The position numbers and the translations under genes are program-made. The notes below the pieces were generated by a model, which ran no database searches, was not told the origin of the DNA, and was given only the letters and a program-made list of their open reading frames with translations. From contig CAWFFS010000027.1 of NCBI GenBank assembly GCA_963815145.1, positions 126,769-190,768 of the forward strand: DNA of 64,000 bases. Reading direction: 5' to 3'. Below are positions 6,655 to 29,633 of the stretch, one piece after another; within the stretch, counting starts at the first letter, position 1, and each line of letters opens with the position of its first letter. This DNA comes from an uncultured delta proteobacterium (GTDB lineage Bacteria; Desulfobacterota; DSM-4660; Desulfatiglandales; HGW-15).

Positions 6655-6972
6655 TACTTTTATTTCCCCTATAAAAAGAACGAACAGGAAGATTTGACAC
6701 AGGATCAAATCAAACTGCTTAGAGAAATAGTCCCCATTTTTACCACGGAGACTAAGTTGAAAAATATTTAACCGAATGCCAGAGAAAATAAAATGACAGG
6801 AGGAGTAAGATGATTCCCATGCTGTAATAGATTTTTTTCATGGCCGAGTCGGAAACAAATTTTTTCGCCCAATATAAAACCATCGTCAATAACGAAATAT
6901 ATGAAGCCAAACCGAGTCCTCCGAATAACAGGAATAAAGCGGAAAGTCCTGGAGAAAATGAACGGACCAGAA

Positions 6973-7856
6973 AGTCCTTCGGGGTCGGACCAAGCTAACC
7001 TATTGGAACCAAAAAATATATGTTGAAAATCGCCTCGAACTTAAGGCTTAAATAGCTCTTTTTAGGCATGAAAATGGAGATATAATAAAACATAAACGAA
7101 TAGGGCTTGCCCTGTTAAATGCTGTTTTACAGCCCGCTTCGCGGATTTAACTGTGTAAACCTTGATATCGGGCAAAAAGAGCGAGTTAGGGTATCAAATT
7201 TTTTTTAACTCTTATATGTTCCCGGAATCTTATACATCTTCCTTGATCCACCACTATTTATTTGATAGAAAATAACAACTTATCGAATAAAGAACACAGA
7301 GATCACGTCCCGGTTAAATAAATACTAAATGTGTTTAACTGGATAAATCTTGATATTCGACGGATTCTTAACTTCTGTACCTCTTCGTTTTAGGCAGCAT
7401 CTGTCCTATGTCCGGACCTGATCCCTTTTGACTATGAAACATGATTTAAAGAGATGGAGATTATATAAATTGAAGAAGAAAAGCAGTGAAAGGAGAGAAA
7501 AGGTTTTTTTATTGCATGAAAAAGGTATGACTTTCCGCGAGATCGGTATTCACTTTGGATTTAACCCCGCGAGGGCCAGGCAGATTTATATAAAGGCCAA
7601 GGAGGAAAAGGAGTTGCTTAATCGCAGTCCTTTTTCCTCACACCTTTCAGCACGTTCCCGGAATGCGTTACAACTGTATTTCAATGATGAAAATATAATC
7701 GATGATCCTGACACTGTTGCTAAACTCGGAAGGAAAAAGCTTAGCACTATCAGGAATTTGGGTATTAAGTCTGTTGAAGAAATTTCAAAGATCCTGTATA
7801 AATTGGGTTGTATTAAAGATCCTGATTCTTGGTAGTATATATTTTCCGCCATTTAT
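6973..7856 (+). repeat. 884-bp direct repeat, copy 1 (copy 2 at 22435-23318)
   Basis: Constant offset of 15462 bp; about 8 substitutions counted by eye. Confidence 0.95.
7428..7835 (+). CDS. Small protein: sigma70 region-4-like HTH fused to an RNA polymerase alpha-CTD-like domain
   Basis: HTH GMTFREIGIHFGFNPARARQI; C-terminal LSARSRNAL...LSTIRNLGIKSVEEI..IL..LG matches the alpha-CTD pattern LSxRxxNxL...NLGxKSxxEI. Confidence 0.75.
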   Translation: MTMKHDLKRWRLYKLKKKSSERREKVFLLHEKGMTFREIGIHFGFNPARARQIYIKAKEEKELLNRSPFSSHLSARSRNALQLYFNDENIIDDPDTVAKLGRKKLSTIRNLGIKSVEEISKILYKLGCIKDPDSW

Positions 7857-7860
7857 ACTC

Positions 7861-7925
7861 AATGGGGACGTCCATGAATTAATTCCAAGAACATTTATAA
7901 TCATTTTTTCATGGACGTCCCCATT
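7861..7925. repeat. Perfect 18-bp inverted repeat (REPIN-like / collapsed RAYT ends)
   Basis: aatggggacgtccatgaa ... ttcatggacgtccccatt; GGGGAC core shared with the RAYT terminal repeats. Confidence 0.75.
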
Positions 7926-7933
7926 GATTATCA

Positions 7934-8152
7934 TTGATTATCATTGAGGATAAACCCTGTCAGGAAAACAATAAAAAGATACCCAAATATGAAAGAGTGG
8001 ACATCCGCATCGGTTATAATGAGATCGAGCTAAGGAGCAGAATAAAAGCATGCGGGGGGAAATGGGAGCCAGAACGAAAAGTTTGGCAACTATCATATAA
8101 AAAGGTAAAAGAACTTGATTTATTAAATAGGATTGTTGATGATGAGTCTTGA
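7934..8152 (+). pseudogene. C-terminal half of a hypothetical protein (tandem paralog of 8192-8536)
   Basis: IIEDKP...IRIGYNEIELRSRIKACGGKWEPERKVW; the 5' part is lost at the 7861-7925 hairpin. Confidence 0.55.
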
Positions 8153-8191
8153 AAAATAATTATATATAGACATTTATCAAACAGGAAAAAA

Positions 8192-8536
8192 ATGAAAGTA
8201 AGACGAATCCTGCAGCCAGGGCAGCCTGGAACTAAAAAGCTCGTTAAAAGATATGGCGATAATATGCTCTGTGTACGATACAGGTATGATGAGGATAAAA
8301 TGATGAAGTACAAGACAATAGAACTCATCATCGATGAGAAACCCATGCCGAGAAAAACCAAAAAAAAGCCAAAACCTAAAAAGATGAACATACACATTGG
8401 CTCAAAGAGATCGAGATAATGATCCTGATAAAAAAAAAGTGGAATATGTTATCCTCAAAGAAGAGTCTGGCGGCTCCCTTATGCAAAGGTGAAAGCACTT
8501 GATTTATTAGGGAGGATTGTTGATAATGAGCCCTGA
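8192..8536 (+). pseudogene. Hypothetical protein, frameshifted/degenerate in the C-terminal half
   Basis: PGQPGTKKLVKRYGDNMLCVRYRYD; the 3' end parallels the end of 7934-8152. Confidence 0.55.
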
Positions 8537-8585
8537 AAAATGGGTATATATAGCTAATTTTCAAACAGGCAAAAAATGCAAAAAT

Positions 8586-8714
8586 GGTTACACGTAACCA
8601 TAATAAAATAGTTACATATAACCAATTTTTTTAAATCTGGTTACATATAACCATAAATGTTTATATGTAACCAGATTTTAAACCGGCCCTAAACCGCTTA
8701 ATAACATGTTGGCT
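8586..8714 (+). other. Candidate integron attI region: repeated GGTTACAYRTAACC boxes followed by a GTTGGCT core at 8708-8714
   Basis: Four ggttaca(t/c)(a/g)taacc-like boxes (8586, ~8610, 8639 and an inverted one at ~8659); GTTGGCT is complementary to R'' AGCCAAC of the first attC; no attC hairpin precedes it. Confidence 0.5.
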
Positions 8715-8734
8715 GTCAATAGAATCAGGGAAAA

Positions 8735-9100
8735 ATGGCAAAGAAAAAGAATTTATCACCAAAATATCAAGTATGGATTGATGCAAGAAAACGGTTTCAT
8801 CTTTCTCATACACATATTCAAATGGCACGGGAAATAGGATTGAATCCAAAGAAATTGGGGAAACTGGCAAACCATAAACAGGAACCTTGGAAATTGCCAC
8901 TTCCGGAATATATTGAAGAATTGTATTTCAAACATTTTAAAAAGGAACCGCCGAAAGACTCATTATCCATAGAGCAACTTGTAAAATTAAAAAAACAAAA
9001 AAATGCGGAAAGAAAAGAACGCAAAAGACAGGAAAAAGATAAAGAAACAATTGAGCAAGTTTCGGCCTCTAATCCTGAATATGATGATATACCTTTTTAA
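8735..9100 (+). CDS. Hypothetical protein (cassette 1)
   Basis: ORF between the putative attI and the attC at 9169. Confidence 0.75.
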   Translation: MAKKKNLSPKYQVWIDARKRFHLSHTHIQMAREIGLNPKKLGKLANHKQEPWKLPLPEYIEELYFKHFKKEPPKDSLSIEQLVKLKKQKNAERKERKRQEKDKETIEQVSASNPEYDDIPF

Positions 9101-9168
9101 GGAAGTTTTTTATTTAAAAACGTGTATTGAAAGTAAGCAGGCAAAAACAAACTAAACAGGTTGGCGGC

Positions 9169-9298
9169 AGCCAACAAGTCACTAAACAAGGACAGGCTGG
9201 TTTTTCTTGCCGAATCGAACCGCAAAGGTTCGCGAAGTTATATAATGCAACAAGCTTCAAAGGTATGCCCCGCCTGCCTGTTAGTGTCGTCGTTGGAT
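9169..9298 (+). other. attC site
   Basis: R'' AGCCAAC ... R' GTTGGAT with cactaa/ttagtg L boxes; 130 bp. Confidence 0.85.
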
Positions 9299-9860
9299 GA
9301 AAGGAATCATAATGCTCGATGCATTTATCAAACTCACTGAAAAAATAATTGAATTGGGCAAGGAGAAGAGTAATAGACGTATTATGTTATTTGAAAAACA
9401 CGCTGAGCCTATGTTTGGTTTATGTAGAGTGGTTCATGATGATTATATTGATGCATTTAAAGAAATTGAAACCTATTTAGTCTCTTCAACATCGGGTATT
9501 AACGAATCATTGGATTTTTTAAAGAAGAGACGAGAAGATTGCTTGAGTGTAAGGCGTGAAATATTTGAATATTGCTATCAGTTAGAACAGCAGCCACCAA
9601 AATGCCTCCTCCCTTTCGTTATAGCATGCCGTGCCCTTTTGAATGCGTCACCGGACTTAGTCGAAGGTGTACGTTGGCATCCTTCAGATTATACATGTTT
9701 AGCCCATAACCTTGAGTTGTTATCAAGAAAAGATGCGCATTTTAGCACTGATGTAAATTATCGCCTCGAGTTACTCAATAGATTCAGATTAGATGTGACC
9801 CAATCTTGGGAAAAAGTAAAAAGTGAATATTTCAAACTTAAAGTGGATTGTTACAAATGA
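9297..9860 (+). CDS. Hypothetical protein (cassette)
   Basis: ORF flanked by attC sites. Confidence 0.75.
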   Translation: MKGIIMLDAFIKLTEKIIELGKEKSNRRIMLFEKHAEPMFGLCRVVHDDYIDAFKEIETYLVSSTSGINESLDFLKKRREDCLSVRREIFEYCYQLEQQPPKCLLPFVIACRALLNASPDLVEGVRWHPSDYTCLAHNLELLSRKDAHFSTDVNYRLELLNRFRLDVTQSWEKVKSEYFKLKVDCYK

Positions 9861-9873
9861 CAATAAAATAAAC

Positions 9874-9959
9874 ATCCAACAAAATGCTACACCAGACCCC
9901 GGAGGGTTCCTTGCTTCATATGAAACCTCACGGCGGGGCTGGTGAGCAATACGTTGTGT
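9874..9959 (+). other. attC site
   Basis: R'' ATCCAAC (complements the preceding GTTGGAT) ... R' GTTGTGT. Confidence 0.9.
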
Positions 9960-9966
9960 GTAGAAT

Positions 9967-10530
9967 ATGATGGAATCCAAAAAAGCTCTTCTAAAATTCA
10001 ATGATGAAGGAATTATTATAGGGCGCCTTTTGGTGGCATATGCTGATTTGGAACTTAGTCTTTTTCACTGTGTAAATGTGACACGAGATGATTTTGATAC
10101 AGTTTATAAGGCAATGTTCAAGGAAAGAGGTGAATCACGACGCATAACTATGGCTGACACCTTTGGAAGACAAAATTATCATACATTAGGGTTTGGCACT
10201 CAGTTTGAAATGGCCATAAGTTCAGTTCGTTTTTGTTTAAAAATAAGAAATCAATATGCACATTGCATTTGGTATGATGATTTTAGTGGAAAATTGGCTT
10301 TTGCAAATTTAGAGGAAGGTACTGAAAGCAATAAAGTTGTAACTGATTTTAAAGAATTGACTATTCGGCATATAGATATTGATACGTTGCATTTGCAGGA
10401 GAAATATTTTGAATATACCGATTCCTTTCTTGCATGGGTGAATTTTGAGGGGCGGCGGGTAGCAGGAAAGCCATCGATGCCTAAACAACAAGCTCCAAAG
10501 CATATCAATCAACCGCCGCTATATGCATGA
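9967..10530 (+). CDS. Putative HEPN-domain protein (cassette)
   Basis: Rx4H motif RNQYAH in a small, apparently helical protein. Confidence 0.6.
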   Translation: MMESKKALLKFNDEGIIIGRLLVAYADLELSLFHCVNVTRDDFDTVYKAMFKERGESRRITMADTFGRQNYHTLGFGTQFEMAISSVRFCLKIRNQYAHCIWYDDFSGKLAFANLEEGTESNKVVTDFKELTIRHIDIDTLHLQEKYFEYTDSFLAWVNFEGRRVAGKPSMPKQQAPKHINQPPLYA

Positions 10531-10534
10531 GAGC

Positions 10535-10591
10535 ACACAACCTGTGCCTTCAGGCGACTCGGTTCCCTCGCGCCTGAGGCTGGCGTTGGCA
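10535..10591 (+). other. attC site
   Basis: R'' ACACAAC ... gccttcaggcg/cgcctgaggc stem ... R' GTTGGCA; 57 bp. Confidence 0.9.
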
Positions 10592-10601
10592 TGGTATAAA
10601 A

Positions 10602-11501
10602 ATGACAGATCTATTTACAGTTTTCATCGTTAAAGGAGTATTAGAGCCGTGGCTATCCTCTTCGGACATGGTGTATAGTTCGATTTTGTCTACACTGAAA
10701 AGTCTTCAACTCTCAGTCCCGTATTGTGTCGAGCTTTATGAATCATTCGATAATTTACCCTTGGGAAACAATCTAAATTGTGATGAAATTCGTGTTGTTA
10801 TTTGTCATATAGACAAGAACGCTGAACAAGAAGTGCTGTCCCGAAGGGATGAGTTCCTTTGGGTACTTGTCTCTGGCGGACAACATGCTGTATCAAAGTC
10901 TTTCCGCAATAAAATGCAACATTGTCATGCCATCTGGTTCCAAGGAGCATACAAGCGGGAAGATAATTTTGCACATTGGATAAGACATTGGACAAAACAA
11001 AATTTTGACATTTCCAATTTTAGTACGAGTGAAGATGCGTTATTCTTTGGTGCATCTGGTCCGATGCTGCATCTGAAAAAATTGCAACAAGACCTGCAAC
11101 CACTTATGATAATTATAGAAAGCTTTAATTCTCTTTGCCATATGGCTGATATGAAAATTGATGCTCCCATGATTAATGAATTATCTATGGGGATTTGTGA
11201 AGTAATCAAAACTCCTGCTATGCTTGACATTATAAGCTCAGAAGCCACACTGCTTGATGGTTGGTTAGCTTCCCAAGAGACCTTAGAACCTGAGCGAGTA
11301 AAGTTGATTAGAAATGCATTATATCCATTGATACCACATGATTATGGACATTTTGAAGTCTATAATCCTAAATTAGACATGGATTTAATCGCCCTCGCCG
11401 AGAACAGGCTAACACATGAAAAGATTTTTGAAGTTGTCGATAAATGGCAAGAACGCTTGGCAGTCCTCTCACAACCAAACAAAGACTTATTCCAGCAGTA
11501 A
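10602..11501 (+). CDS. Hypothetical protein, first gene of a two-gene cassette (possible receiver-like N-terminal domain)
   Basis: 299-aa ORF; VVICH...LWVLVSGG alpha/beta pattern. Confidence 0.7.
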   Translation: MTDLFTVFIVKGVLEPWLSSSDMVYSSILSTLKSLQLSVPYCVELYESFDNLPLGNNLNCDEIRVVICHIDKNAEQEVLSRRDEFLWVLVSGGQHAVSKSFRNKMQHCHAIWFQGAYKREDNFAHWIRHWTKQNFDISNFSTSEDALFFGASGPMLHLKKLQQDLQPLMIIIESFNSLCHMADMKIDAPMINELSMGICEVIKTPAMLDIISSEATLLDGWLASQETLEPERVKLIRNALYPLIPHDYGHFEVYNPKLDMDLIALAENRLTHEKIFEVVDKWQERLAVLSQPNKDLFQQ

Positions 11502-11520
11502 TAAAATGGAGATTGAATAG

Positions 11521-12570
11521 ATGGCTATTTATGAAAACCCTTTTACAACAGACACATCTAGAATCCCAATTAATAGGATTTTAGATCGTTCTGATGAGCT
11601 GAAAAGGATCGAAACAATAACCGTAGCACGTAGTGAAAATATATTACTAACCGGTGAGAATGGCATTGGCAAGACCTGTTTACTTAAAAAGTTCAGGTCG
11701 GCACTTTCAACTCAATATCCAGATGATTGCCTTCTAGTAGAAATTGAAATGCTTGGGATGGCGACGACTCCAGATCGATTTATTTCCGGCTTGTTGCTGA
11801 AGCTTTTTGAGGTTGTTTATACCTCTGTGACCAACAAACCATTTTCATCACTACTTGCATATTCATCTACCGCTCGGGACTTTCCAGTATCGTTAGTGCC
11901 AGCCGTAAAGCACATAATTCAGCTGTTCAGAATGGTCAAGGCTAGAGAGACTTCATCCAATGTCGAAGATAAACATAAAATTGGCGCATCACTTGGCCTT
12001 TCTGCTAACAAAGAGGAAAAACTCGGGAAAAGCTATAAATCTGGGGAATTAAGCCCTACGGAACTTCTTTCAATTTCCTACGAACTTCTTGTGCTACTAA
12101 ATGATAAAGGCTTCTCTAGGGTAATAGTTTTCGGTGACGAGGCAAATCATATTTCTCCAGATATAGAGATTGACTTATATCGTAGTAATTTTGAAGCGTT
12201 CTCTTCACGCAACCTCCAGTTTGTTTTTACGGGTGCTCCAAGATTGTTTGAAAAAATACCGCATTTCCATGAGTTATTTCCTAATGCACTGAAAGTAACG
12301 GGTTTTAAAGACACTGCCGCACTTGATGAGCTTATTGACATTAATTGCAAGGAACTTGCTGAATATGGGATTTCTCTCAACTTTCCTTCTGAAATAAGAA
12401 CGATAATTTGGAATATAACATCTGGAAATCCACAGGAAATTCAAAGGATCTGTCGCACTGTCACTGATATTGCAGTGGAAGAATCTCTGTCAGTTGTTAC
12501 AACCGAGCTTATAATTAAGGGATGTTTGGATGTCTATTCTTTTATCCCAAAGAAACTATCGACATTATGA
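11521..12570 (+). CDS. AAA+/STAND-like P-loop ATPase, second gene of the cassette
   Basis: N-terminal ENPF..ILDR..EL, Walker A GENGIGKT, Walker B VIVFGDEAN, TSGNPQEI. Confidence 0.85.
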   Translation: MAIYENPFTTDTSRIPINRILDRSDELKRIETITVARSENILLTGENGIGKTCLLKKFRSALSTQYPDDCLLVEIEMLGMATTPDRFISGLLLKLFEVVYTSVTNKPFSSLLAYSSTARDFPVSLVPAVKHIIQLFRMVKARETSSNVEDKHKIGASLGLSANKEEKLGKSYKSGELSPTELLSISYELLVLLNDKGFSRVIVFGDEANHISPDIEIDLYRSNFEAFSSRNLQFVFTGAPRLFEKIPHFHELFPNALKVTGFKDTAALDELIDINCKELAEYGISLNFPSEIRTIIWNITSGNPQEIQRICRTVTDIAVEESLSVVTTELIIKGCLDVYSFIPKKLSTL

Positions 12571-12573
12571 TTA

Positions 12574-12644
12574 TGCCAACAACCTACTGCACCTGATCGA
12601 TGTTCCGCTGCGCTCCACACCGACAGGTGAGTAGTGCGTTGGGC
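12574..12644 (+). other. attC site
   Basis: R'' TGCCAAC ... ctactgcacctg/caggtgagtag ... R' GTTGGGC. Confidence 0.92.
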
Positions 12645-12707
12645 TACAAAAGAATACAGCGATACAGGGTCGTAATATGCATACCATTTTAATAAAAGGG
12701 GTTAATT

Positions 12708-13901
12708 ATGTCGCACATCATTTCTTTCAAAATTGAAGGTTTGGCTGGACGGAAAGATCCGTTGGAATTGGAATTGAATCGGGACACGAATATCTTCTTT
12801 GGCCCGAATGGAAGCGGCAAAACCTCCCTCCTCAAAATCTTGCATGCGGCCATGGCTAATAATACAGACATATTGGCACGCGTCCCGTTTGTTTCAGCAG
12901 AGGTACACATCTACTCGCTGACTTGGGATAAAGTATTCGTGCGTTCGCTTAAAAAGGCACAAAATATAAAAATTAGCCACTCCAAGGCAAGGAGGGTTGT
13001 TCACAGCGAAGTGCGAATAGGTAAAGATATCGTCCTTGTCGAAGAGCCATATACCGATAAGACGCTTAAATGGTCATGTAGTCCAAAGACTCCTAAAGAG
13101 GCATCCACAACTAGTTGGGCACACGAATATCTATCTACATCGCGACTCCATGTCAGTGACGAACCAATGCCTCCCTTTTTTGAGCCATCGGGTTCCTCAC
13201 GCACTTGGCTAACCGAAGACCAGTTGGATACTTTCTTCGCCCGTTCAGTTGAGAGACTCTGGAATAGATACTCTGCCAAAATCCTTAGCGCTGTACGTGA
13301 AGCTCAAGAGCAAGGCCTTGCAAGTATTTTACGTGCAGTCCTAGCTTCCGAACGCACAAAGGGGAAGCGCAGAAATAGCAAACTCACCAGCGCTACGGCC
13401 TATGAGAGGGTTCATAATTTTTTAAAAAGACAAGGCTCAGCTTCTATTCTTGGATCACGCAAAGACTTTGAAAAGCGGTATGTCGCAGATAACACCTTGC
13501 AGGATGTAGTTCAGGACATTGATGTCGTGGAGAACAAGATTAGGAGTGCCATGAAGTCGCGTGACTCTTTGCAGGAGTTAATTTCCAAAATGTTCATGGC
13601 AAATAAGGAAATCCAATTTTCAGACGAATCCATCGAGGTTAAAACACCATCAGGTGAGAAAATTGGTCTCGCATCGCTTTCATCAGGTGAAAAACATCTG
13701 ATCCGCATACTTGTTCAAGCACTCCTAGTTGGCGAAAGTTCACTTATGATCGATGAGCCAGAGATATCGATGCATGTCGACTGGCAGAAGATCCTTATTG
13801 GATCCATGCGAACACTGAACACCGATGCTCAGTTGATCCTCGCGACTCATTCTCCCGAGATCATGGCTGATGTTGAAGATGACAAGATCTTTCGAATCTA
13901 A
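12708..13901 (+). CDS. ABC/AAA_21-type ATPase (PARIS AriA-like)
   Basis: Walker A GPNGSGKT, signature LSSGE, Walker B LMIDEPE, H-loop ATHS. Confidence 0.88.
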   Translation: MSHIISFKIEGLAGRKDPLELELNRDTNIFFGPNGSGKTSLLKILHAAMANNTDILARVPFVSAEVHIYSLTWDKVFVRSLKKAQNIKISHSKARRVVHSEVRIGKDIVLVEEPYTDKTLKWSCSPKTPKEASTTSWAHEYLSTSRLHVSDEPMPPFFEPSGSSRTWLTEDQLDTFFARSVERLWNRYSAKILSAVREAQEQGLASILRAVLASERTKGKRRNSKLTSATAYERVHNFLKRQGSASILGSRKDFEKRYVADNTLQDVVQDIDVVENKIRSAMKSRDSLQELISKMFMANKEIQFSDESIEVKTPSGEKIGLASLSSGEKHLIRILVQALLVGESSLMIDEPEISMHVDWQKILIGSMRTLNTDAQLILATHSPEIMADVEDDKIFRI

Positions 13902-13913
13902 AAGAAAGGACTT

Positions 13914-14837
13914 ATGATGAACAGACTCCATCACTCATTCTCAGGCCATCTTCGACTAATGCAAATGTCGACAACCCAATTATTCATCTTCGTTGAAGGC
14001 AAACAGTGTGACCCATATTTTTTCGCAAGCATTTGCTCTGCAACATTGGACGATCGTTTGAAATACGAAATTGCCATAGCACGACAACTCCCAGGAGATA
14101 CTGGCGGTAAACAGGCATTAATCTCGTTTTTCGAATTTCTCCGAATGCGAAAATCACTGTTTTCTGACTTAGGTGGCCAAAAAACTACTTGCTTGTTCTT
14201 TCTTGATAAAGATATTGACGATCTTCAACGAAGAAAACTTCGCTCTCGTCATGTTGTCTACACTCAGCACTACGATGTGCAGAACTATATCTTTAAACAC
14301 GGAAATCTTGTAACGGGGACCTCGGCAGCGGCATCGATCGATCCAAGGAGGATCGATCGACAACTGACCGATGCTTCAGAGTGGTGCCGAAAAGCTGCTT
14401 CACTCTGGCGAGATTGGATTGCGCTCTGTCTCAGAATGCTGGAGGATGGAATTCCATGTGAAGCGAACTACAGAGTTTTATCTCCCATACAAACACGTTA
14501 CTGTGGCCCAACAGATATAAATTTACATTTAGAAATCACCCGAAGGTTGGCTCGGCGAAATAGAATTCCCGTTTCTGATCTGAGACGTAGAATTGAATTA
14601 TCAAGAAGGAAAGTAAGCAGGTATTTCGCGAAGGAGGAACATCACCGTATATTCAAAGGCAAGTGGTTTGCAATAATCCTTGCGGACGATGTCGACCGAA
14701 TTATGGCTGGAGACCCATATGACAACAATGGTCTCCCTGGGCGGTTGCCATCTGCGATCGCTGCCACTCTAGACTTTACAGAAGCATGGACGGAATACTT
14801 CAAGCAACCTTTACGAGAAATCAGTATGGAACTTTGA
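13914..14837 (+). CDS. DUF4435/TOPRIM-like nuclease (PARIS AriB-like)
   Basis: FVEG..D, GGK, DKDID, Y.(D/E)NY-like YDVQNY and KGKW motifs; directly downstream of the ABC ATPase. Confidence 0.78.
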   Translation: MMNRLHHSFSGHLRLMQMSTTQLFIFVEGKQCDPYFFASICSATLDDRLKYEIAIARQLPGDTGGKQALISFFEFLRMRKSLFSDLGGQKTTCLFFLDKDIDDLQRRKLRSRHVVYTQHYDVQNYIFKHGNLVTGTSAAASIDPRRIDRQLTDASEWCRKAASLWRDWIALCLRMLEDGIPCEANYRVLSPIQTRYCGPTDINLHLEITRRLARRNRIPVSDLRRRIELSRRKVSRYFAKEEHHRIFKGKWFAIILADDVDRIMAGDPYDNNGLPGRLPSAIAATLDFTEAWTEYFKQPLREISMEL

Positions 14838-15061
14838 AGTTAGTATATGGAAAGAGGGACGACCATAAAAATCTAAATAACTTAAAAAATCAGGTTTAAC
14901 CGGTTGTTGAATATGTGTAATCTCAACTTTCATAATAAAATTAAGGTGATGTGAGGATTCTTGGGTAATCTATTTATTTTGAACAAAACCATCTTTATGT
15001 ATAACATACAAAAAGTAATAATATCCAGAACAGGAGAATAACTTGTTGACCGGAGGGAACA

Positions 15062-15571
15062 ATGAAAGGAAGGATAAAAGCAGGCGAAGGAACTTTGGTC
15101 GGTAACGCTGGGGAATTCTATGTTGTGGCAGAGCTTTTAAAACGAGGTGTAATCGCCGCTCTCGCCCCCCGAAATTCGCCAGCGTTCGACATCCTTGCCA
15201 CAAAGGATGAGAAAACGTTTCGTATTCGTGTTAAGACAAAGTCTGAGCAATATGACAATTGGCAATGGGTTGCTAAAAAGGATGGCTCTCTTTTTCGAGA
15301 GCTCTCAGACCATGATGACTTTACTATTCTTGTTAACCTGACAATGGAGACGAAGGATCTCGCCTTTTTTATCGTTCCGACTTCAACTCTCAACAAGTGG
15401 CTGAATGATGATTTTGAAAATTGGAAGGCGACACCTGGGAAAAATGGGCGTCCGCATGATCCGACTAACAAAAAGCGTAATCTCCCATACTCGAAATACG
15501 CCGATAGGCTTAAAAATGAATGGGATATAATGTGGCAGGCACGCCAACCCGGCGTTCAAGCAGAGCGCTAA
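15062..15571 (+). CDS. PD-(D/E)XK nuclease-fold protein
   Basis: GNAGEFYVVAELLKRG...FDILA...IRVKT pattern; the stop lies inside an attC. Confidence 0.7.
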   Translation: MKGRIKAGEGTLVGNAGEFYVVAELLKRGVIAALAPRNSPAFDILATKDEKTFRIRVKTKSEQYDNWQWVAKKDGSLFRELSDHDDFTILVNLTMETKDLAFFIVPTSTLNKWLNDDFENWKATPGKNGRPHDPTNKKRNLPYSKYADRLKNEWDIMWQARQPGVQAER

Positions 15572-15601
15572 CAGCTGCGCCTGCTTAACTTACAGTTCGG
15601 G
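15542..15601 (+). other. attC site
   Basis: R'' CGCCAAC ... gttcaagcag/ctgcttaac ... R' GTTCGGG. Confidence 0.82.
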
Positions 15602-15609
15602 CGAGAGAA

Positions 15610-16011
15610 ATGAGTGGAACTAGGATAATTATAGGGTTTATTTGCGTTGTCATGGGAATTTTATCACCATATTACTATGCCATATCCATGAACGACGATC
15701 TCAATAAACTTGGCTTATTTGTAATGACAGCCATTGCTGGTGGGCTTGTGTTTCTCGTCTTCGTCTTCAGCCTAAAGCTATTTAAGTCATTAGCCAAGCA
15801 GATTATATTTGGCACAATTGGATGCTATGTATCCTTCTTTATGTTAATTTTCATTATTGCTGTTTTGACAGGAGATTTCCAAGAAACGATAAAGTGGTAT
15901 ATCCCAATTATGCTGATAGTTGGAATTCCCTACACGACTCCACTTGTGGGAGTGGTATGTTTAGGAACATTTTTAATATTTGGAAAAAGAAGTCAACCCG
16001 AACAAAATTAA
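15610..16011 (+). CDS. Integral membrane protein with ~4 TM segments (cassette)
   Basis: Hydrophobic segments; flanked by attC sites. Confidence 0.75.
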   Translation: MSGTRIIIGFICVVMGILSPYYYAISMNDDLNKLGLFVMTAIAGGLVFLVFVFSLKLFKSLAKQIIFGTIGCYVSFFMLIFIIAVLTGDFQETIKWYIPIMLIVGIPYTTPLVGVVCLGTFLIFGKRSQPEQN

Positions 16012-16124
16012 CTCAGACCGGGCGACTCTCTTGCCAGATCGGGGTTGAGTGCAACATAGAATCAATTGATGTTGGTAAACATCTAAAATTCTAAACCGCC
16101 CGGCTGGTTATTTAGGTGTTCTGA
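15997..16124 (+). other. attC site
   Basis: R'' CCCGAAC (complements GTTCGGG) ... ccgggcg/cgcccgg ... R' GTTCTGA. Confidence 0.88.
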
Positions 16125-16129
16125 GTCAA

Positions 16130-16417
16130 TTGAAAATTAATTGCGGCAAAGGAGAATTAAAGGCCATGAAAAGTGCTACTGTAAAAAAAGGGAATATGCC
16201 AGCCCACAAAGGACACACAGAGTATTTCGAGGGATTGTCCTTTGCGGAACAGGCAAAGTCAATAAATGCAACAATGGCTTATGCATCAAAGGCAATAAAG
16301 GCACATCTGAGGAAAGCCAAAATAGAAAAAAGAAACATACGTTCAGTCCATGATAAATGTATTGGGCAGGTCAGTAGGTTGCTTCAGCGCATAGAAGCAA
16401 TCAAAATAAAAGAATAA
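16130..16417 (+). CDS. Small basic hypothetical protein (cassette; likely start is the ATG at 16166)
   Basis: ORF between attC sites with a ggag RBS before the internal ATG. Confidence 0.65.
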   Translation: MKINCGKGELKAMKSATVKKGNMPAHKGHTEYFEGLSFAEQAKSINATMAYASKAIKAHLRKAKIEKRNIRSVHDKCIGQVSRLLQRIEAIKIKE

Positions 16418-16456
16418 TAGTAAGGCCATAGCAGCCAAGGAAAAAATAGAAAAACC

Positions 16457-16583
16457 TCAGAACAAGTCGCTTAACTAAGACTGGCTACTATCTTGCCGAA
16501 TCGACCTTTTGTGGTTTGCAGAAGAAGTTCTTTTAATAATCTTTTGTGGTTGGCACCGCCAGCTTGTTAGCGTGCCGTTCGGC
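16457..16583 (+). other. attC site
   Basis: R'' TCAGAAC (complements GTTCTGA) ... R' GTTCGGC; shares internal cttgccgaatcga with the attC at 9169. Confidence 0.88.
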
Positions 16584-16600
16584 AATATAAGGAAAATTTA

Positions 16601-17047
16601 ATGAATCGGTCGATATGGTCGCCATCACCAATAAGAAAAGGTACTCTCTTTGGAACTCTAAATTATGAGCTTTCAAGGCTTGACCGAACATATGAGGATA
16701 TTCTTCCTGATTTTAGTGATGCAAAAACTCTATTAATTGGGTCAGATTATAGTGGCGAATCATTTAATGCTCCTTATGTGGTATTTTCTTTTCTTTTAAC
16801 TTCATTGGAATCGTGGGCGAGGTGGGAATCATACCGCCTTCAGATAAGGAAAAAGTTTTTTTCTGATTCACGGCGTATGTCCTTTAAAAAACTTTCAGAT
16901 CGACAACGTAGTCAGGCACTGCCATATTTTTTGGAAGCAGCCAATTCTTTAGATGGCTTATTGATTTCTGTAGCTTTGAACAAAAAATGTAATCCTATTT
17001 TTGATAACAAACCTCCCATTGACTTAAGCAATCCTGATTTTAAAGCG
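16601..17047 (+). pseudogene. Cassette ORF truncated at the RAYT element left end
   Basis: The ORF reads into the terminal repeat at 17048; no 3' half or attC appears on the far side. Confidence 0.7.
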
Positions 17048-18141
17048 GGACGCTCTTCATTATTACAGTTGACAGGCTGGTTGGATAGGAATAAATTGAT
17101 CCAATGTCAAGGACAGCCAGATTAGACGCCCCAGGGGTATTACATCATGTAATGATCCGTGGGATAGAAGGAATGAAAATCTTTCGTAACAATAAAGATC
17201 GTGAAGACTTTATTTGAAAGACTTTTGCAGCTATGTCCTGAGATGAGTATAAAATGCTATGCATGGGCATTTATGTCCAACCATGCCCATTTTCTAATCC
17301 GTACAGGCGAAAACCCATTATCCAGATTTATGAGACGCCTTCTTACTGGTTATGTCATAGGGTTTAATTTCAGACATAAAAGAAGAGGGCAGTTATTTCA
17401 GAACCGGTACAAATCTATAGTATGCCAGGAAGATATATATCTAATTGAACTGGTCCGGTATATTCACCTGAACCCGGTTCGGGCAGGAATTGTTAATACC
17501 CTGGATGAATTGAAGAAATACAAATATTGCGGTCATGGGGCAATAATGAGTGGATTGAAATCTGACTGGCAGGATACAGATTATGTTCTGGGGCATTTTG
17601 GAAAGAATAAAAGAAGAGCCAGAGAAAGAATATGAAACTTTTGTTAAAAAGGGACTAAACCAGGGCCGAAATAATGAGTTGACCGGCGGTGGTCTTATAA
17701 GAAGTCTTGGGGGTTGGACAGAAGCAAAGGAAAAACTAAAAGCCGGCGCTCATATTATGAGCGATGAAAGGATACTCGGAGATTCTGATTTTGTTGATTC
17801 GATGATCACCCAATCTGAAGAAAACTATGAGAGGAGACACAGGTTAAAACAGCAAGGGTATGATCTGGAAGGTATATCGGAAAGGGTTGCTGAAGTATTA
17901 GAAATTGAACTGGATGAAGTGTTTTCCAAGGGGAGGCAGGAGAAGAAAGTAAAGGCAAGAAGTCTACTATGCTATTGGTCATCAAGGGAGTTGGGCATAT
18001 CCCATACCTCACTGGCAAGAAGACTGGAAATGAGTATATCAAATATTGGCTTATCAGTTGAGCGCGGGGAGTTAATAGCCAGGGAAGGTAAATATACACT
18101 TGAAAAGCAAGATTAAGATAATGGAATAATGAAGAGCGTCC
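17048..18141 (+). mobile_element. RAYT/TnpA(Y1) HUH transposase element with perfect 17-bp terminal inverted repeats; CDS 17104-18116 has two frameshifts
   Basis: ggacgctcttcattatt / aataatgaagagcgtcc; RLDAPGVLHHVMIRG, MSNHAH, LFQNRYKS, YIHLNPVRAG; C-terminal HTH. Confidence 0.9.
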
Positions 18142-18159
18142 TTATTTACTATTTATATA

Positions 18160-18841
18160 TAAAGGACGGGTTTACGTTCCTCGGGCAAAGTTTCCGGAAG
18201 CATGGCAGAGTATTGCACATTACGCCATCAAAGGAGGGAGTCCTCGCCCTCAAGCGGAAACTGGGAACCTTAATCCGGAAACACGTCGGAGCACCGATGC
18301 CGGTCCTGATCAAGAAGCTGAATGACGCGCTTCGTGGCTGGGGCAACTACCATAAACATATAGTGGCATCGGACGCATTTGATCATGTTGACAAATATGT
18401 ATATGATCAATTATGGAACATGGTTAAACGCAGACACAGGAAGAAATCCAAAGACTGACTAAAGGAGCATTACTGGTCAGCCGCCGGAAATAAAGGTGTG
18501 TTTGCGGTTAAAGCCAAAAATGAGAAAAACGTCGAAAAGGTGTATAGAGTTTTTCAAGTTTGTTCCATTATAATCAGAAGATACATTAAGATCAAAGCTG
18601 ATGCAAATCCTTACTTGTCAGAGTTTGCTAAGTATTATTATCGCAGAAGACATGATAAGGAAAGTAAGCTGCTTGGTGCCAGGAGTTCAAGAGAATATCT
18701 GGCTCTAAAAGCAGCCTAATGTTAACACAGCCTGGCCGCCCCACAAGGGTTGCCTTTGGGATGCTTGAGCCGTATGACGGGAAACTGTCACGTACGGTTC
18801 TTAGGGGGGAATGGGGTGGTAACACCCCTGACCTACCCGAT
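18160..18841 (+). mobile_element. Group II intron 3' remnant (RT domain 7 and maturase X, with an in-frame stop at 18456; DV/DVI at 18767-18841)
   Basis: DGFTFLG, LRGWGNY, IKADANPY; DV gagccgtatgacgggaaactgtcacgtacggttc; 3' end ...cctacccgat. Confidence 0.9.
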
Positions 18842-19712
18842 CATCAATAGGATTACTCTAGTGGAAAAAGAGAAACAAACAAGTGGAGATTTATGGGCAT
18901 GGTTCCCTGGAGGAAGTCCAGAACGCATAATTTTACAAAAAGCATTTGAGGAATCTAAAAACGACATACAGGCATTAAAGAACTTAGAAAATAAAGTGCT
19001 CGAAAAAGTAAGAGAACTAGAATCTCAGAGGAAATTCGCGTTTGCTGCGGACCTCTATTTGCTTGTCCAGGAAATAAGAGCGTCCTTGGGAATGGATGCC
19101 AGCCTAATAATGTGGGCTAGGGAGTGTGCTGCAGATTCCTTTTCGAAAGCTAAAGAATGGGGCTTAGCCCCTATTTATTACCGCGGTGTTGTTTACAAAT
19201 CTCGCCGCTCTGGTGAATTTGATGATGAACTTATGCTTCAATATTTTAAGCTAAAGTCTGCTGAACGTAATTTCCTTCGGACATCCAAACGCTGGGGGAG
19301 ATGGCTAACATACTGGATTTGGGGTATTACCTCAGGATTCGGCACCTCTTATAAAAGACTTATGTTTACAGTGCTCATGGTTTTGCTTATCTGCGCCCAC
19401 TTATTTTTTCTTGGAACAACATTAACTGGAGGACACTTCATTTCTGGTAAATCTGCTATCACATATTTAGACCATATTTATTTTAGTGTCGTAGTATTTT
19501 CAAGCTTGGGTTTCGGGGACTTATGGCCTGTTCATCCAGTTGCAAAGTTATTAGTAGTGCTGGAAGTGTTACTTGGTTTGGTCATTCTAGGCTTATTCAT
19601 ATCTATTCTTTCTAGAAGAATCACACTCATAGGGACAGTTGACTTAAGCTTAAAAAATCGTTGGAAAGAGGCGCGCAAATTAATGAAGTACAGTAGTAAA
19701 ACTAAGAAATAG
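18842..19712 (+). pseudogene. Potassium-channel (Ion_trans_2-like) domain protein; 5' end lost at the intron junction (cassette)
   Basis: YFSVVVFSSLGFGDLWP pore-loop motif flanked by TM helices; the predicted start at 18750 lies inside the intron. Confidence 0.7.
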
Positions 19713-19774
19713 GATTCATAGGAACAAAGGCGGATAAATTTTTTCAATGAAAGCGAATAAAGCAGAAAATTTTT

Positions 19775-19834
19775 GCCCAACAATTTTTTACAGCGGATCG
19801 CAAAAAACCGCGTCCGCTGAAAAACACGTTGGGC
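19775..19834 (+). other. attC site
   Basis: R'' GCCCAAC ... cagcgga/tccgctg ... R' GTTGGGC. Confidence 0.92.
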
Positions 19835-19884
19835 TTCCTGCGAGCCAAGCCTCTCTGAAGTTGCCAATGCTAAGGTGAAAAGCT

Positions 19885-20544
19885 ATGAGCGAAGGTTGGA
19901 TCTACATTGTAAGTACTCTTACATACGCTGAGAAAGATTTCTATAAGATTGGTAGGACGACTCAATCTCCAGAGGTGAGGGCGAAACAACTATCACAAGC
20001 CACGGGCGTTCCAGAGAAATTCATAGTCCATTTTGCCAAGGATGTTTCTGATTGTGAGCTGGCTGAACGAATGATCCATGAAAGGCTAAATTCCTGTCGA
20101 TATAGAGCGGACAGGGAGTTCTTTGCCATTTCATTGGAGAATGCAAAGGCAGTTGTTAACGAGGTGGCGGAAGAAATTGGTGCAGCACTCGCATTCGATG
20201 AAGAAGTGAATTCTCCGAACCTCTCAAAATACTTGAGCCTCAAACATAAAGATAGAAAACCATCAAGTTCCGCCGATGTGTCCAAGTTGGCAGAAAATCT
20301 TCTTTCCAACCATTACACCAAAATCAGGGACTTGGAAAGAATTTTGGAAAGAAGCAGAAGCGCTCTACGCGAATATGAAAAGAAGGCTCGAAAGGGAATA
20401 CTTCTATCTCAAGTAATGGCAACTCGAATCTCTCTGGAGTTGTGCGATGCAGGATTCCACGACCGAATCGGGGAACGATATCCCCTTCACGGTTTAAGAG
20501 TTGTAGACATGCTTGAGCAATTCCGAAAGCTTGTAACGGAGTAA
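19885..20544 (+). CDS. GIY-YIG nuclease, T5orf172-like (cassette)
   Basis: GWIYI...YKIGRT...R...L...TGVP..F...E..IH..L...R...REFF. Confidence 0.85.
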   Translation: MSEGWIYIVSTLTYAEKDFYKIGRTTQSPEVRAKQLSQATGVPEKFIVHFAKDVSDCELAERMIHERLNSCRYRADREFFAISLENAKAVVNEVAEEIGAALAFDEEVNSPNLSKYLSLKHKDRKPSSSADVSKLAENLLSNHYTKIRDLERILERSRSALREYEKKARKGILLSQVMATRISLELCDAGFHDRIGERYPLHGLRVVDMLEQFRKLVTE

Positions 20545-20553
20545 TGAATGTCT

Positions 20554-20618
20554 GGGCCACAAGCTTTATGGAATAGCCAGTCCGTGCCAGTTCGCGCGGT
20601 CATCTTAGCTAGTTGGGG
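20554..20618 (+). other. Degenerate attC site
   Basis: R' GTTGGGG with aagct/agct arms; R'' is mutated (GGGCCAC). Confidence 0.45.
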
Positions 20619-20626
20619 TTTTAAAA

Positions 20627-20797
20627 ATGGGAATTTTTGAGAAAATAACTTCTGAATATGGCGGTTTCAAAATCATCACTGAGAAAATTGGACGTGAGAG
20701 GCTTGATCTATACAGTGACAGAGTTTATCAGCAATATTGCAACCTATTTGATAGTGCCACGTACTTAAAAAATGTAGAACGGGACGCTCTACAGTAA
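20627..20797 (+). pseudogene. Last cassette ORF, truncated by an orphan RAYT-type end at 20781
   Basis: The ORF runs into gggacgctctacagtaattcagttga. Confidence 0.5.
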
Positions 20798-21004
20798 TTC
20801 AGTTGAGAATAAGATATTGAATTTTGAAAGTAATTTCCCATCCTGCATTTTAAAAATATGAAAAAAAAGAAAACTCTCCTGAAAAACTGGATCTAAATTC
20901 CATGGATATTGTTTCGGAAGACAGGAATAAACTCAGGGGATTTTTTCTTTAACCACGAACTACGTCCGTCTTCGTAAAAGACATTCATACTTCAGTCTTC
21001 GCTA

Positions 21005-21178
21005 TGAAGCTACGCCCCGACAAGTCCGTCTTCACATAAATTTATGCCGGGATAAAATGGCGGGACAGGCGAAAAACACGAAATAAAAATAAAATATTTT
21101 TCCATATTTCAAAACTTCAGTTTGCTTCATCTATTTTCTGGGTCATATGGACTGAAATCGGAGTATCTATCGACTTTT
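21005..21178. repeat. ~175-bp dispersed repeat, copy 2
   Basis: Homologous to 6013-6186. Confidence 0.8.
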
Positions 21179-21312
21179 ATAACTCATGTGAAATTAACAT
21201 AATATCCAGCTAAATACATTGATTGATATTGATAAACCTTTTACAATATGCTCATTAAAAGCATGTAAAAGAATTTATCATAATTAAAAAAACTAAAATA
21301 GAGAGGTTTAAA

Positions 21313-21501
21313 ATGCTATCAGCAAAAGAGGAAACTATCCGACTCTTAAAGGAACTTCCGGACAATAGTACCTTTGAAGAAATCCAATATCATTTGTACG
21401 TTCGTCAGAAGATACAACGTGGTATCGAGGATATAGAAGATGGAAAAATATATTCTCAGGAAGATATGGAAAAACGGATGGGAAAATGGCGCGTAAAGTA
21501 A
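21313..21501 (+). CDS. Putative type II antitoxin
   Basis: 62 aa, LKELPDNSTFEEIQYHLYVRQKIQRG; overlaps the downstream RelE/ParE toxin. Confidence 0.8.
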   Translation: MLSAKEETIRLLKELPDNSTFEEIQYHLYVRQKIQRGIEDIEDGKIYSQEDMEKRMGKWRVK

Positions 21502-21794
21502 TCTGGGCCTATGCCGCGGAAGAGGATCTTGTCTCCGCCGCCGAGTATATTCATAAAGATTCTCCGGCATATGCGGCTTCTTTCGTTGACAGAGCTCTGG
21601 ATGCGGGCCGATCTCTGGATAAATTCGCAGAGCGGGGGCGTATTGTGCCGGAGCTTAATGAAGATAATATAAGGGAGATATTTGTATATAGCTATCGTCT
21701 TATTTATCGAATTGGAAATGATCAAATTTCCATCCTGGCATTAATTCACGGGCGTCGAGATTTTCAGCACGCCTGGGATGAAAAAGAACGTTAA
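21486..21794 (+). CDS. RelE/ParE-family toxin
   Basis: VIW...AEEDL...YI..DSP...GRIVPE....REIFVYSYRLIY...IHGRRD. Confidence 0.88.
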   Translation: MARKVIWAYAAEEDLVSAAEYIHKDSPAYAASFVDRALDAGRSLDKFAERGRIVPELNEDNIREIFVYSYRLIYRIGNDQISILALIHGRRDFQHAWDEKER

Positions 21795-22243
21795 CGACAC
21801 GAAAAGACTTGTTTCGGAAAACAGGGATAAACTCAGGAATCTTTTTTACCGCGAACCACACGGAATGCATAAAAGATATCTCCGCGATCCAGGTTATTTA
21901 AAAAACATCTGAAAACCGGTCGGGAATAAATCACGACCCTACGAAAGACAACTCGCCATCCGAAATTGTCAGCCGCCTTTCATAATGTGAAATCGGAAAT
22001 GGGATAGGGCAAGATAACTGATTGATATAAACCATAAAACTTCTGTTTTCACCCTATAAAACAGCTCTATATTGTGTAAAAAGCTTAGTGTCAGACCAAA
22101 TATCTTCTAAGGGGGATAGGTTTGTTGATTAACATGACAAATTATAGCATTGGTTGGCATAGTTTCATGACAGCATGCCAATCAGGTGACTTGCCTGTCC
22201 TTTTGTAATTCTTTTAGGCACATCAAGATTCCTGCTCCTTAAA

Positions 22244-22434
22244 ATGGTAAATGGGGACGCTGTTCGGTTATACGGTTGATAGAGTTATGGTAAATGGGGA
22301 CGCTGTTCGGTTATACGGTTGATAGAGTTATAGTATTCAGGTATTTATGACCCATGCCAAGACAATCTAGAATAGAGACGTCCGGCGCACTGCACAATAT
22401 CATGGCCAGAGGGATAGAAGGCGGGAAAATATTC
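22244..22434 (+). mobile_element. RAYT remnant: left end tandemly duplicated (2 x 43 bp, 22244-22329) plus the first 27 codons of the transposase (22354-22434)
   Basis: atggtaaatggggacgctgttcggttatacggttgatagagtt twice; MPRQSRIETSGALHNIMARGIEGGKIF. Confidence 0.8.
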
Positions 22435-23318
22435 AGTCCTTCGAGGTCGGACCAAGCTAACCTATTGGAACCAAAAAATATATGTTGAAAATCGCCTCGA
22501 ACTTAAGGCTTAAATAGCTCTTTTTAGGCATGAAAATGGAGATATAATAAAACATAAACGAATAGGGCTTGCCCTGTTAAATGCTGTTTTACAGCCCGCT
22601 TCGCGGATTTAACTATGTAAACCTTGATATCGGGCAAAAAGAGCGAGTTAGGGTATCAAATTTTTTTTAACTCTTATATGTTCCCGGAATCTTATACATC
22701 TTCCTTGATCCACCACTATTTATTTGATAGAAAATAACAACTTATCGAATAAAGAACACAGAGATCACGTCCCGGTTAAATAAATACTAAATGTGTTTAA
22801 CTGGATAAATCTTGATATTCGACGGATTCTTAACTTCTGTACCTCTTCGTTTTAGGCAGCATCTGTCCTATGTCCGGACCTGATCCCTTTTGACTATGAA
22901 ACATGATTTAAAGAGATGGAGATTATATAAATTGAAGAAGAAAAGCAGTGAAAGGAGAGAAAAGGTTTTTTTATTGCGTGAAAAAGGTATGACTTTCCGC
23001 GAGATCGGTATTCACTTTGGATTTAACCCCGCGAGGGCCAGGCAGATTTATATAAAAGCTAAGGAGGAAAAGGAGTTGCTTAATCGCAGTCCTTTTTCCT
23101 CACACCTTTCAGCACGTTCCCGGAATGCGTTACAACTGTATTTCAATGATGAAAATATAATTGATGATCCTGACACTGTTGCTAAACTCGGAAGGAAAAA
23201 GCTTAGCACTATCAGGAATATGGGTATTAAGTCTGTTGAAGAGATTTCAAAGATCCTGTATAAATTGGGTTGTATTAAAGATCCTGATTCTTGGTAGTAT
23301 ATATTTTCCGCCATTTAT
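22435..23318 (+). repeat. 884-bp direct repeat, copy 2
   Basis: Near-identical to 6973-7856. Confidence 0.95.
22890..23297 (+). CDS. Second copy of the HTH + alpha-CTD-like protein
   Basis: Differs from 7428-7835 by 2 aa (H>R, L>M). Confidence 0.75.
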   Translation: MTMKHDLKRWRLYKLKKKSSERREKVFLLREKGMTFREIGIHFGFNPARARQIYIKAKEEKELLNRSPFSSHLSARSRNALQLYFNDENIIDDPDTVAKLGRKKLSTIRNMGIKSVEEISKILYKLGCIKDPDSW

Positions 23319-23422
23319 GTTACTGAAAAAAAGAAACCACTGAAAATCGGTCGGGAATAAATCTCGACCCTACTAAAGACAAACCGGTTGAAATCTTCCT
23401 GATGATACTGAAAAAGGGGACA

Positions 23423-23472: not shown

Positions 23473-23518
23473 ATCCCCCTCCATTTATATATACCTTTAT
23501 CTTTGATACAAAAGAAAA

Positions 23519-29626: not shown

Positions 29627-29633
29627 TTTTTTC

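Follow-up and report, generated by a model that had tools for sequence, protein, structure and literature searches.

Long direct repeats around a cargo, as in a composite transposon or an IS26-type unit, permit its excision or amplification by homologous recombination. At promoters, region 4 of the sigma factor (sigma4) and the C-terminal domain of the RNA polymerase alpha subunit (alpha-CTD) are neighbours on the −35 and UP-element DNA, and they are the polymerase surfaces most often targeted by phage regulators. Elements of the TIRtron or TIRYT class (PMC3733652; TnpA-Y1 subclass 2.1.2 in PMC6006769) are described as having a Y1 transposase with a DnaA_C-type helix-turn-helix (HTH) tail, terminal inverted repeats (TIRs) beginning with GGGG, and short derivatives made of TIRs only; the motif GGGGWSAS is common to only some of these TIRs. 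Integron arrays without an integrase are referred to as clusters of attC sites lacking integron integrases (CALIN). Here, we analysed a window of 64,000 nucleotides (the whole stretch of DNA under study; contig CAWFFS010000027.1 of assembly GCA_963815145.1, positions 126,769 to 190,768) from an uncultured delta proteobacterium of the Desulfobacterota, in which two nearly identical 884-bp direct repeats enclose a CALIN-like array, each repeat carrying a gene for a protein of 135 amino acids (aa) with a sigma4-like HTH and an alpha-CTD homologue. We put at roughly 55% the overall reading that the repeats are a two-copy duplication within an integrase-less integron island and that the protein works by DNA-binding repression.

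The copies can be aligned over 884 bp without gaps and with 8 substitutions (99.1% identity), while their flanks diverge immediately; a match of this length and identity is far beyond chance. The initial annotation of this DNA had given the same boundaries, and the leader of about 455 bp and the 135-aa open reading frame (ORF) that it described are present in both copies (Table 1). The copy spacing is 15,462 bp, with 14,578 bp of DNA between the copies (7857–22434). Six of the eight differences fall within the ORF, which is read from a TTG; an ATG two codons on gives 133 aa, as in two homologues. No sigma70-type promoter above chance was found in the leader, and an Rfam search of the repeat found nothing curated. 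When the 5.9-Mb genome (29 contigs) was searched by BLASTN and tblastn, only these two copies were found.

The two ends of the repeat were examined separately. Just inside the left end lies a single TIRYT-type terminal motif with one mismatch to the published GGGGWSAS, and related ends occur at about 8 other genomic sites. The earlier statement that the repeat has no TIRs holds as far as paired ends are concerned, but it has to be amended for this single end. Comparison with related sequences indicates that the repeat does not end naturally on the right, because the match between copy 2 and the homologue in genome G021 starts at the ATG and extends to 23382, 64 bp past the repeat end, contigs from sediment samples run past it too, and copy 1 stops at a miniature transposable element with inverted repeats (MITE). 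The G021 homologue is single on its contig and lacks the leader altogether. The 884-bp unit thus has only two copies, none of them at unrelated sites, no paired second end, an unconserved and unnatural right end, and a leader missing in a relative, and the proposal that it moves as such is not supported.

The MITE, whose TIRs are perfect, starts 2 bp after copy 1. The hairpin previously noticed at this point is therefore present, the distance of 4 bp being obtained when counting from AATGGGG. Near-identical MITE copies occur at five other genomic sites with unrelated flanks, and the MITE ends are the same as those of a 1.1-kb element around a Y1 gene on contig C8 (257072–258172). These ends, GGGGACGT and GGGGTCGG, are each one base off GGGGWSAS, and a sister copy reads GGGGTCAG; the GGGGTCGGACC end may, alongside the MITE, be a candidate substrate of the C8 Y1 transposase. 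At copy 2, an ORF resembling Y1 and REP-associated tyrosine transposases (RAYT), read by eye from the ATG at 22354, is cut at the repeat as had been described, and the DNA matches of its stub to three other genomic sites stop at 22436, 2 bp inside copy 2. The claim that Y1/HUH elements lie at the junctions is consequently borne out by the MITE, the TIR-type ends, and the C8 Y1 element. As to their class, the Y1 elements of this genome (about 40 Y1 matches) fit the TIRtron/TIRYT descriptions of PMC3733652 and PMC6006769, with the DnaA_C-type tail, the GGGG beginning of the TIRs, and short TIR-only derivatives. In contrast to those descriptions, the ends here are one base off GGGGWSAS, and the 884-bp repeat is one-ended, being neither a TIRtron nor a MITE. 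In the Y1 element located in the array, sequences from other runs are without the single bases at 17213 and 17625. A resemblance of the 30 bp to the left of copy 1 to an IS3-type end was not confirmed, these 30 bp having no second copy in the genome.

The accessory island extends beyond the repeats, which had been taken as its boundaries. It lies between a short-chain dehydrogenase/reductase (SDR) gene ending at 3686 and a metallo-beta-lactamase-fold (MBL) gene ending at 23551, and these two genes directly adjoin each other in genomes G018, G025, and G026. At this empty site, found in 3 of 10 same-genus genomes, about 19.8 kb are missing, whereas the loss of a composite element would have removed the 15.5 kb bounded by the repeats; therefore, the 884-bp repeats are internal to the island. 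The SDR and MBL genes are separated in G021 and G023, and the junction was not found in the remaining genomes of the ten compared. The GC fraction of the island is 0.397, as against 0.433 and 0.456 in the flanks. The nearest named homologue of the protein comes from a Desulfobacteraceae bin, placed by a genome search in the same genus as the source. The SDR gene is itself split at 3269–3686, and its counterparts in G021 and G023 are about 230 bp longer at 3440, which means that the copy here has an internal deletion. The region 4100–6970 holds pieces of IS1634, a Bpu10I-type nuclease, a RelE-like toxin, and several repeat ends; 6013–6200 recurs at 21005–21191 and 5386–5446 at 23409–23472.

Judged from its sequence, the DNA enclosed by the repeats is an integron array without integrase in which attI is kept. 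Eight AAC...GTT palindromes, found by eye, lie between short same-strand ORFs. Folding of the bottom strand yielded z values below −2 for six of these attC-like sites and −1.06 and −0.24 for the other two, the coordinates used for the site with −0.24 having missed its ends. A strict home-made attC caller applied to the + strand recovered 4 of the 8 sites with 1 other call, and made 0 calls in 20 kb of core flanks; no counts were drawn from two looser callers (null 0–3 calls per 20.8 kb; 17 of 60 random windows). Up to G|TT, the sequence is common to the array heads on contigs C29, C17, and C8, after which four different first cassettes follow, including that of the window, and this marks the attI. 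Since an internal cassette on contig C1 matches the first cassette (8708–9294) with 100% identity, recombination of cassettes in trans was probably recent. The TIGR02249 profile identified two full IntI genes, both on C8, with no match above the cut-off elsewhere in the genome and thus none adjoining the window array.

The likeness to CALIN accordingly consists of the G|TT crossover, the attC hairpins, and the IntI located elsewhere in the genome, together with cassettes resembling toxin-antitoxin (TA) and defence genes and an intron remnant (compare the group IIC-attC introns). The differences are that the head is decapitated by the MITE and that a duplicated gene brackets the array. The parent-type integron on C8 (266091–267797) differs in having intI, a small ORF, attI, and cassettes in order on one strand. 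The integron-head ORF that the MITE cuts in the window is uncut upstream on C29. Tandem copies of the small post-intI ORF are seen at several array heads in the genome and the genus, and no Pfam, NCBIfam, or PHROG match was obtained for it. The cargo also includes a PD-(D/E)XK protein, and the 62-aa ORF beside ParE has no Pfam match. The label of defence island is fair for part of this cargo, but most cassettes are without a family match.

Table 1. Positions of the repeat copies, the array, and associated features in the window
Feature	Position	Strand	Remark
Accessory island	~3690..23490 (approximate)		between the SDR and MBL genes; 884-bp repeats internal
Repeat copy 1	6973..7856	+	likely derived, right-truncated copy
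Leader	6973..7427	+	455 bp; 293 bp match dispersed genomic repeats
Single TIRYT-type terminal motif GGGGTCGGACCAAG	6981..6994	+	8 bp inside repeat left end; one-change version at 22443
HTH-alphaCTD ORF, copy 1	7428..7835	+	HTH residues ~17-66, alpha-CTD homologue ~67-135
MITE, 69 bp with 20-bp TIRs	7859..7927	.	sets right end of copy 1, cuts integron-head ORF
Truncated tandem copies of small post-intI ORF	7934..8600	+	integrase missing here
attI-like site	8680..8714	+	crossover G|TT at 8708/8709
Cassette array	8708..20560	+	attC-like sites, AAC...GTT boxes
attC-like sites	9169-9298, 9874-9959, 10534-10590, 12574-12644	+	
attC-like sites	15542-15601, 15995-16124, ~16457-16581, 19775-19834	+	
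AAA_21 ATPase (best PADLOC match AriA/PARIS) and 307-aa unannotated partner	12708..14837	+	likely defence cassette
TIR-bounded Y1 transposase element, DnaA_C-type HTH tail	17041..18151	+	frameshifted in assembly
Group II intron 3' remnant	18156..18841	+	GIIM match; RF00029 at 18765-18841
T5orf172-domain cassette	19885..20544	+	partial PADLOC matches PDC-S57 / PD-Lambda-1
62-aa putative antitoxin and ParE toxin	21313..21794	+	ParE_toxin match
5' stub of Y1/RAYT-like ORF with duplicated AATGGGGACG-type end	22250..22436	+	cut at copy 2
Repeat copy 2	22435..23318	+	native 3' flank kept
HTH-alphaCTD ORF, copy 2	22890..23297	+	H30R, L111M, four silent changes
Short hairpin like repetitive extragenic palindromes (REP)	23340..23385	.	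also at 21900-21951 and 3' of the G021 gene

The junctions were followed in sediment contigs from 5 runs, all of them from samples other than the source (share at most 0.18); these contigs are short and unphased. The junction of the Y1 stub with the repeat, on the left of copy 2, was seen in runs X1, X2, X3, and X6, and that of the left flank of copy 1 in X7. The native right flank of copy 2 was found in 3 of 4 runs (X2, X3, and X7), in X3 on copy-1-type alleles. The junction of copy 1 with the MITE is absent among the matches listed in the 5 runs, and no RNA dataset was among the runs listed as containing the sequence. Because 4 of the 8 copy-distinguishing sites vary across the samples in mosaic patterns, the copies resemble two alleles of the population. 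Integration by homologous recombination agrees with this pattern, which also leaves an assembly chimera a small probability.

Duplications of this kind are not peculiar to the locus, since direct repeats in two copies separated by a few kb are frequent in this genome: at least 6 others were found, 96–99% identical and 3–15 kb apart. One of them, a 757-bp direct repeat on contig C5 (101196–111512) around 9.6 kb and further similar gene pieces, has a TIR-type motif at its start and another TIR cutting its first copy, which is the anatomy described above; the gene whose start it carries appears RhuM-like. When all duplicate ends were considered, TIR-type motifs lay within 20 bp of 41 of 253 ends, as against 2.6 expected from local shuffling. 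The published GGGGWSAS, when widened by one step, gave 30 as against 6.6 expected. As a separate observation, a 3.1-kb direct repeat of 99.4% identity at C4:104675–116249 has a TA-like gene pair and small genes and encloses cassette-like ORFs.

Based on these results, we hold with good confidence that the 884-bp repeat is a two-copy duplication in an integron island without integrase and that TIRYT ends likely cut it out. Copy 2 would keep the native downstream flank, while copy 1 would have been joined to the decapitated array head at the MITE end, either through a TIR-mediated rearrangement or through recombination that united two population alleles. The gene itself is likely a former cassette gene, and the presence of two intact copies may have arisen by accident during the rearrangement. 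As with any direct repeat, 15.5 kb could be deleted or circularised when the copies recombine by a RecA-type route; the 15.46-kb circle is physically possible in this way but was unobserved. In these terms, the repeat is an ordinary scar and not a new mobile element, and the locus offers population evidence for TIRYT ends marking rearrangement breakpoints in integron islands.

Several points weigh against this history. One is that both left junctions lie at the same base, 8 bp outside the TIR-type motif; this suggests a reused breakpoint and fits in part the initial idea of a mobilised unit. Another is that the motif behind the count of 41 of 253 was drawn from this genome and many such ends are elements themselves, whereas GGGGWSAS in its published form gave 5 against 2.1 expected (null maximum 7), which is not significant. 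In addition, TIRYT elements are not known to make rearrangements of such a kind. The last is that the window gene has no attC of its own beside either copy, so that the attC and GTTRRRY core expected of a cassette are missing.

As for the protein, profile and model comparisons indicate that its C-terminal half is a true alpha-CTD homologue and that its N-terminal half is like a sigma4 HTH, in agreement with the original assignment. The single protein scored 23.7 bits for RNA_pol_A_CTD (Pfam cut-off 23.8) and 20.8 for Sigma70_r4 (cut-off 24.1). A search of 1.84 billion representatives seeded with six close homologues gave 665 matches at E ≤ 0.001 and 50 at 1e-10, and a 74-row profile was assembled from 68 of the 150 listed (those with one long match, ~110–165 aa), the window protein, and five close homologues. 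This profile matched solved alpha-CTDs (3gfk_B with E 5e-11, E. coli chains with E between 2e-6 and 3e-5) as well as sigmaA region 4, with E 2e-7 to 1e-6; the top row of the search was a designed HTH repeat protein, and the best natural solved matches of the N-terminal half were sigmaA/RpoS region 4. At the level of individual members, Pfam RNA_pol_A_CTD (E ≤ 0.001) was found in 26 and PF04545 in 35 of the 74. In hhalign with the host RpoA (96%), LSARSRN is paired with LSVRSAN and RNLGIKS with KNFGRKS. The top match of the predicted structure (predicted local distance difference test score, pLDDT, 94) among 48,161 chains was the Bacillus subtilis alpha-CTD (Z 7.8; root-mean-square deviation 2.1 over 59 residues). 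Foldseek gave no match at E ≤ 0.001 with this model in PDB or BFVD, nor with an earlier model from a 7-sequence alignment (pLDDT 64).

The residues conserved in the 74 rows are R76 (63), N79 (53), N110 (51), G112 (73), K114 (44), and S115 (47; 62 with Thr), all held by the window protein, and we take them to be the equivalents of alpha R265, N268, N294, G296, K298, and S299 (E. coli numbering). Alpha R265, N294, and K298 are reported to contact UP DNA (PMC7822876). The recognition helix reads ARARQI, as compared with ERIRQI in sigma4, and dN/dS against the G021 homologue is 0.28. The protein thus shares with the alpha-CTD (PF03118) and sigma70 region 4 (PF04545) homologous folds, most of the alpha-CTD DNA-contact residues, and a sigma4-like recognition helix. 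It differs from them in being a fused chain of about 120 aa with a 5-residue insertion in the alpha-CTD, without the alpha N-terminal domain (alpha-NTD) and sigma regions 2–3, and in being accessory and mobile; a full alpha subunit (RpoA) is about 330 aa long, and the host rpoA lies on contig C14. A complex prediction with a piece of the host beta-flap scored 0.00, which is uninformative either way. The automatic database labels of the members are 'RNA polymerase alpha subunit' or 'sigma subunit', and no description of an HTH-alphaCTD fusion family was found in the literature searched, subscription papers and supplements lying outside the search. Some members (P0022, P0025, P0026, P0075, and P0203–P0214) reach 228–267 aa and carry an additional C-terminal stretch of about 110 aa.

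The family is rare and patchy: members occur in 2 of 61 genomes of the taxonomic family, in 2 of 209 of the class, and in 1 of 42, 17 of 401, and 0 of 27 genomes of three other classes. The pairing of the two modules recurs in dozens of proteins that are 30–40% identical. From their sequence neighbourhoods, the ten close loci can be divided into one proven cassette, three likely cassettes, three array-linked genes, two that are neither, and one that is uninformative; about 7 of 10 are thus cassette- or array-linked, and the expected tie of homologues to mobile or cassette DNA was found. The proven case (G433) is cassette 2 of a complete integron (IntI 431 bits, cut-off 265) with attC on both sides and matching GTTATGC/GCATAAC cores. 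In G821 and G835, an attC remnant ending in GTT lies right before the start codon (hairpin z −2.5 and −2.9), and upstream of it is an apparent group II intron end, recognised by eye; group II introns are known to target attC (PMC3001079). In G755, an attC-like hairpin without its last box is followed by a PIN/Phd pair. In G000 and G021 the gene follows a TA pair at the array tail without its own attC, the G021 remnant being unfolded (z −0.2), and in G539 a 5'-truncated copy lies between a cut SIR2-like ORF and DUF1016/Eco57I genes. The G927 contig is only 1 kb long. A phage origin received no match by tblastn in 50,697 phage records; scans of viral contigs gave 7 matches, all confined to the HTH half, while two other members had none. 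Look-alikes in the ESM Atlas, in viral Sigma70_r4 clusters and in bacterial RNA_pol_A_CTD clusters of 131–152 aa, are leads only.

With respect to the mode of action, DNA-binding repression is somewhat favoured. The HTH would read the major groove and the alpha-CTD module would clamp the adjacent narrow A/T minor groove, contacts that are modelled on sigma4 and alpha-CTD at −35/UP DNA. As it lacks both sigma region 2 and the alpha-NTD assembly domain, the protein would be unable to join the holoenzyme and would remain outside it, so on balance it would occlude strong promoters or an operator, blocking and not recruiting RNA polymerase. Some results speak against this picture. The Z of 7.8 is below the level (8) regarded as clear by the tool and is not decisive alone, the HTH half fits DeoR, HetR, and others as well as sigma4 in the structure search, and K114 is M or I in all six closest homologues. 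Moreover, the G886 and L002 members lie among housekeeping genes, and 11 of the 37 genomes in one family carry a distant subfamily, its gene in G437 (L076, 8639–9078) lying between a BCCT transporter gene and ftsH. In this subfamily (L076; L094–L104), several members have similar promoter-like upstream sequence, and it is possibly a domesticated regulator.

A bolder version, which we regard as speculative, is that this cassette-spread single-chain family of the Desulfobacterota is a miniature mimic of upstream promoter recognition that defends against phages, either by covering strong −35/UP early promoters or as a sink for phage proteins that hit sigma4 or alpha Arg265. If promoter blocking or phage baiting is true, this would be a new and very compact form of defence or regulation at the level of transcription, and the protein would offer a natural model, in a single chain, for the interface between alpha-CTD and sigma4.

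The alternative that survives best, though still doubtful, is an ordinary accessory regulator, a generic HTH with a helix-hairpin-helix derived from the alpha-CTD acting on its own operator without promoter mimicry. The near-equal fit of the HTH half to many HTH families, the loss of the K298 equivalent in close homologues, and the TA-like pairs adjoining the member in G000, G021, G755, and G835 accord with it. However, the best natural solved sequence matches of the N-terminal half are sigmaA/RpoS region 4, and the identical pairing of modules persists across dozens of proteins with 30–40% identity.

An anti-phage decoy or sensor with the same DNA history, which would show the sigma4 and alpha Arg265 surfaces and so soak up or sense phage proteins, appears unlikely. 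Both domains are known phage targets (PMC2988021, PMC3694059): AsiA of T4 binds sigma4, and Alt and ModA ADP-ribosylate alpha Arg265 (PMC2988021). The Arg265 equivalent is kept in 63 of the 74 members, integron cassettes are reported to be rich in defence genes (bioRxiv 2024.07.02.601686), in keeping with the cassette or array location, and neighbours of the members include AriA-like, T5orf172, TA, and restriction-modification genes. Nevertheless, the conserved residues are those of DNA contact, just as a DNA binder would have; members of about 120 aa have no effector domain, the protein matched no PADLOC model (0 families, 2023 library), and one subfamily has a housekeeping location.

The explanation originally offered for the DNA, namely, that the 884 bp are a transposase-free unit moved by an HUH/Y1 enzyme and that the two copies form a composite, excisable defence transposon, is improbable. 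The direct repeats do enclose the array, the left junctions share one base beside the TIR-type motif and both are present in other samples, X7 holds, though unphased, the left flank of copy 1 together with the right flank of copy 2, which is what a one-copy allele would show, and Y1 matches abound. Yet there is no second end, a separate MITE sets the right end, the copies are only two, a relative is without the leader, and the island exceeds the repeat-bounded part; members elsewhere travel as integron cassettes without any of this DNA. In contrast to composite and IS26-type units, moreover, the repeats have no transposase, paired ends, or target duplication and occur nowhere else in the genome. 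Least probable of all is an assembly chimera of two strain haplotypes with one copy each, concatenated in the bin (completeness 90%, contamination 3.5%): the copy alleles do segregate elsewhere and the copy 1-to-MITE junction is missing from the sediment matches listed, but the 658-kb contig and long-read-type indels (split rpoB, single-base insertions) suggest long reads, which would span 884 bp, the precise MITE end is that of a biological joint, and three of the four junctions recur in independent studies of samples other than the source.

Finally, some observations were made apart from the repeats and the array. The split of rpoB is a frameshift at C14:331540–335674, most likely a sequencing error of the assembly. 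In the window, short tandem and inverted repeats rich in TATGCGC surround a small intergenic region at 29086–29630, and tandem units of about 1 kb with 73% identity, probably paralogous genes, occupy 53636–56477.

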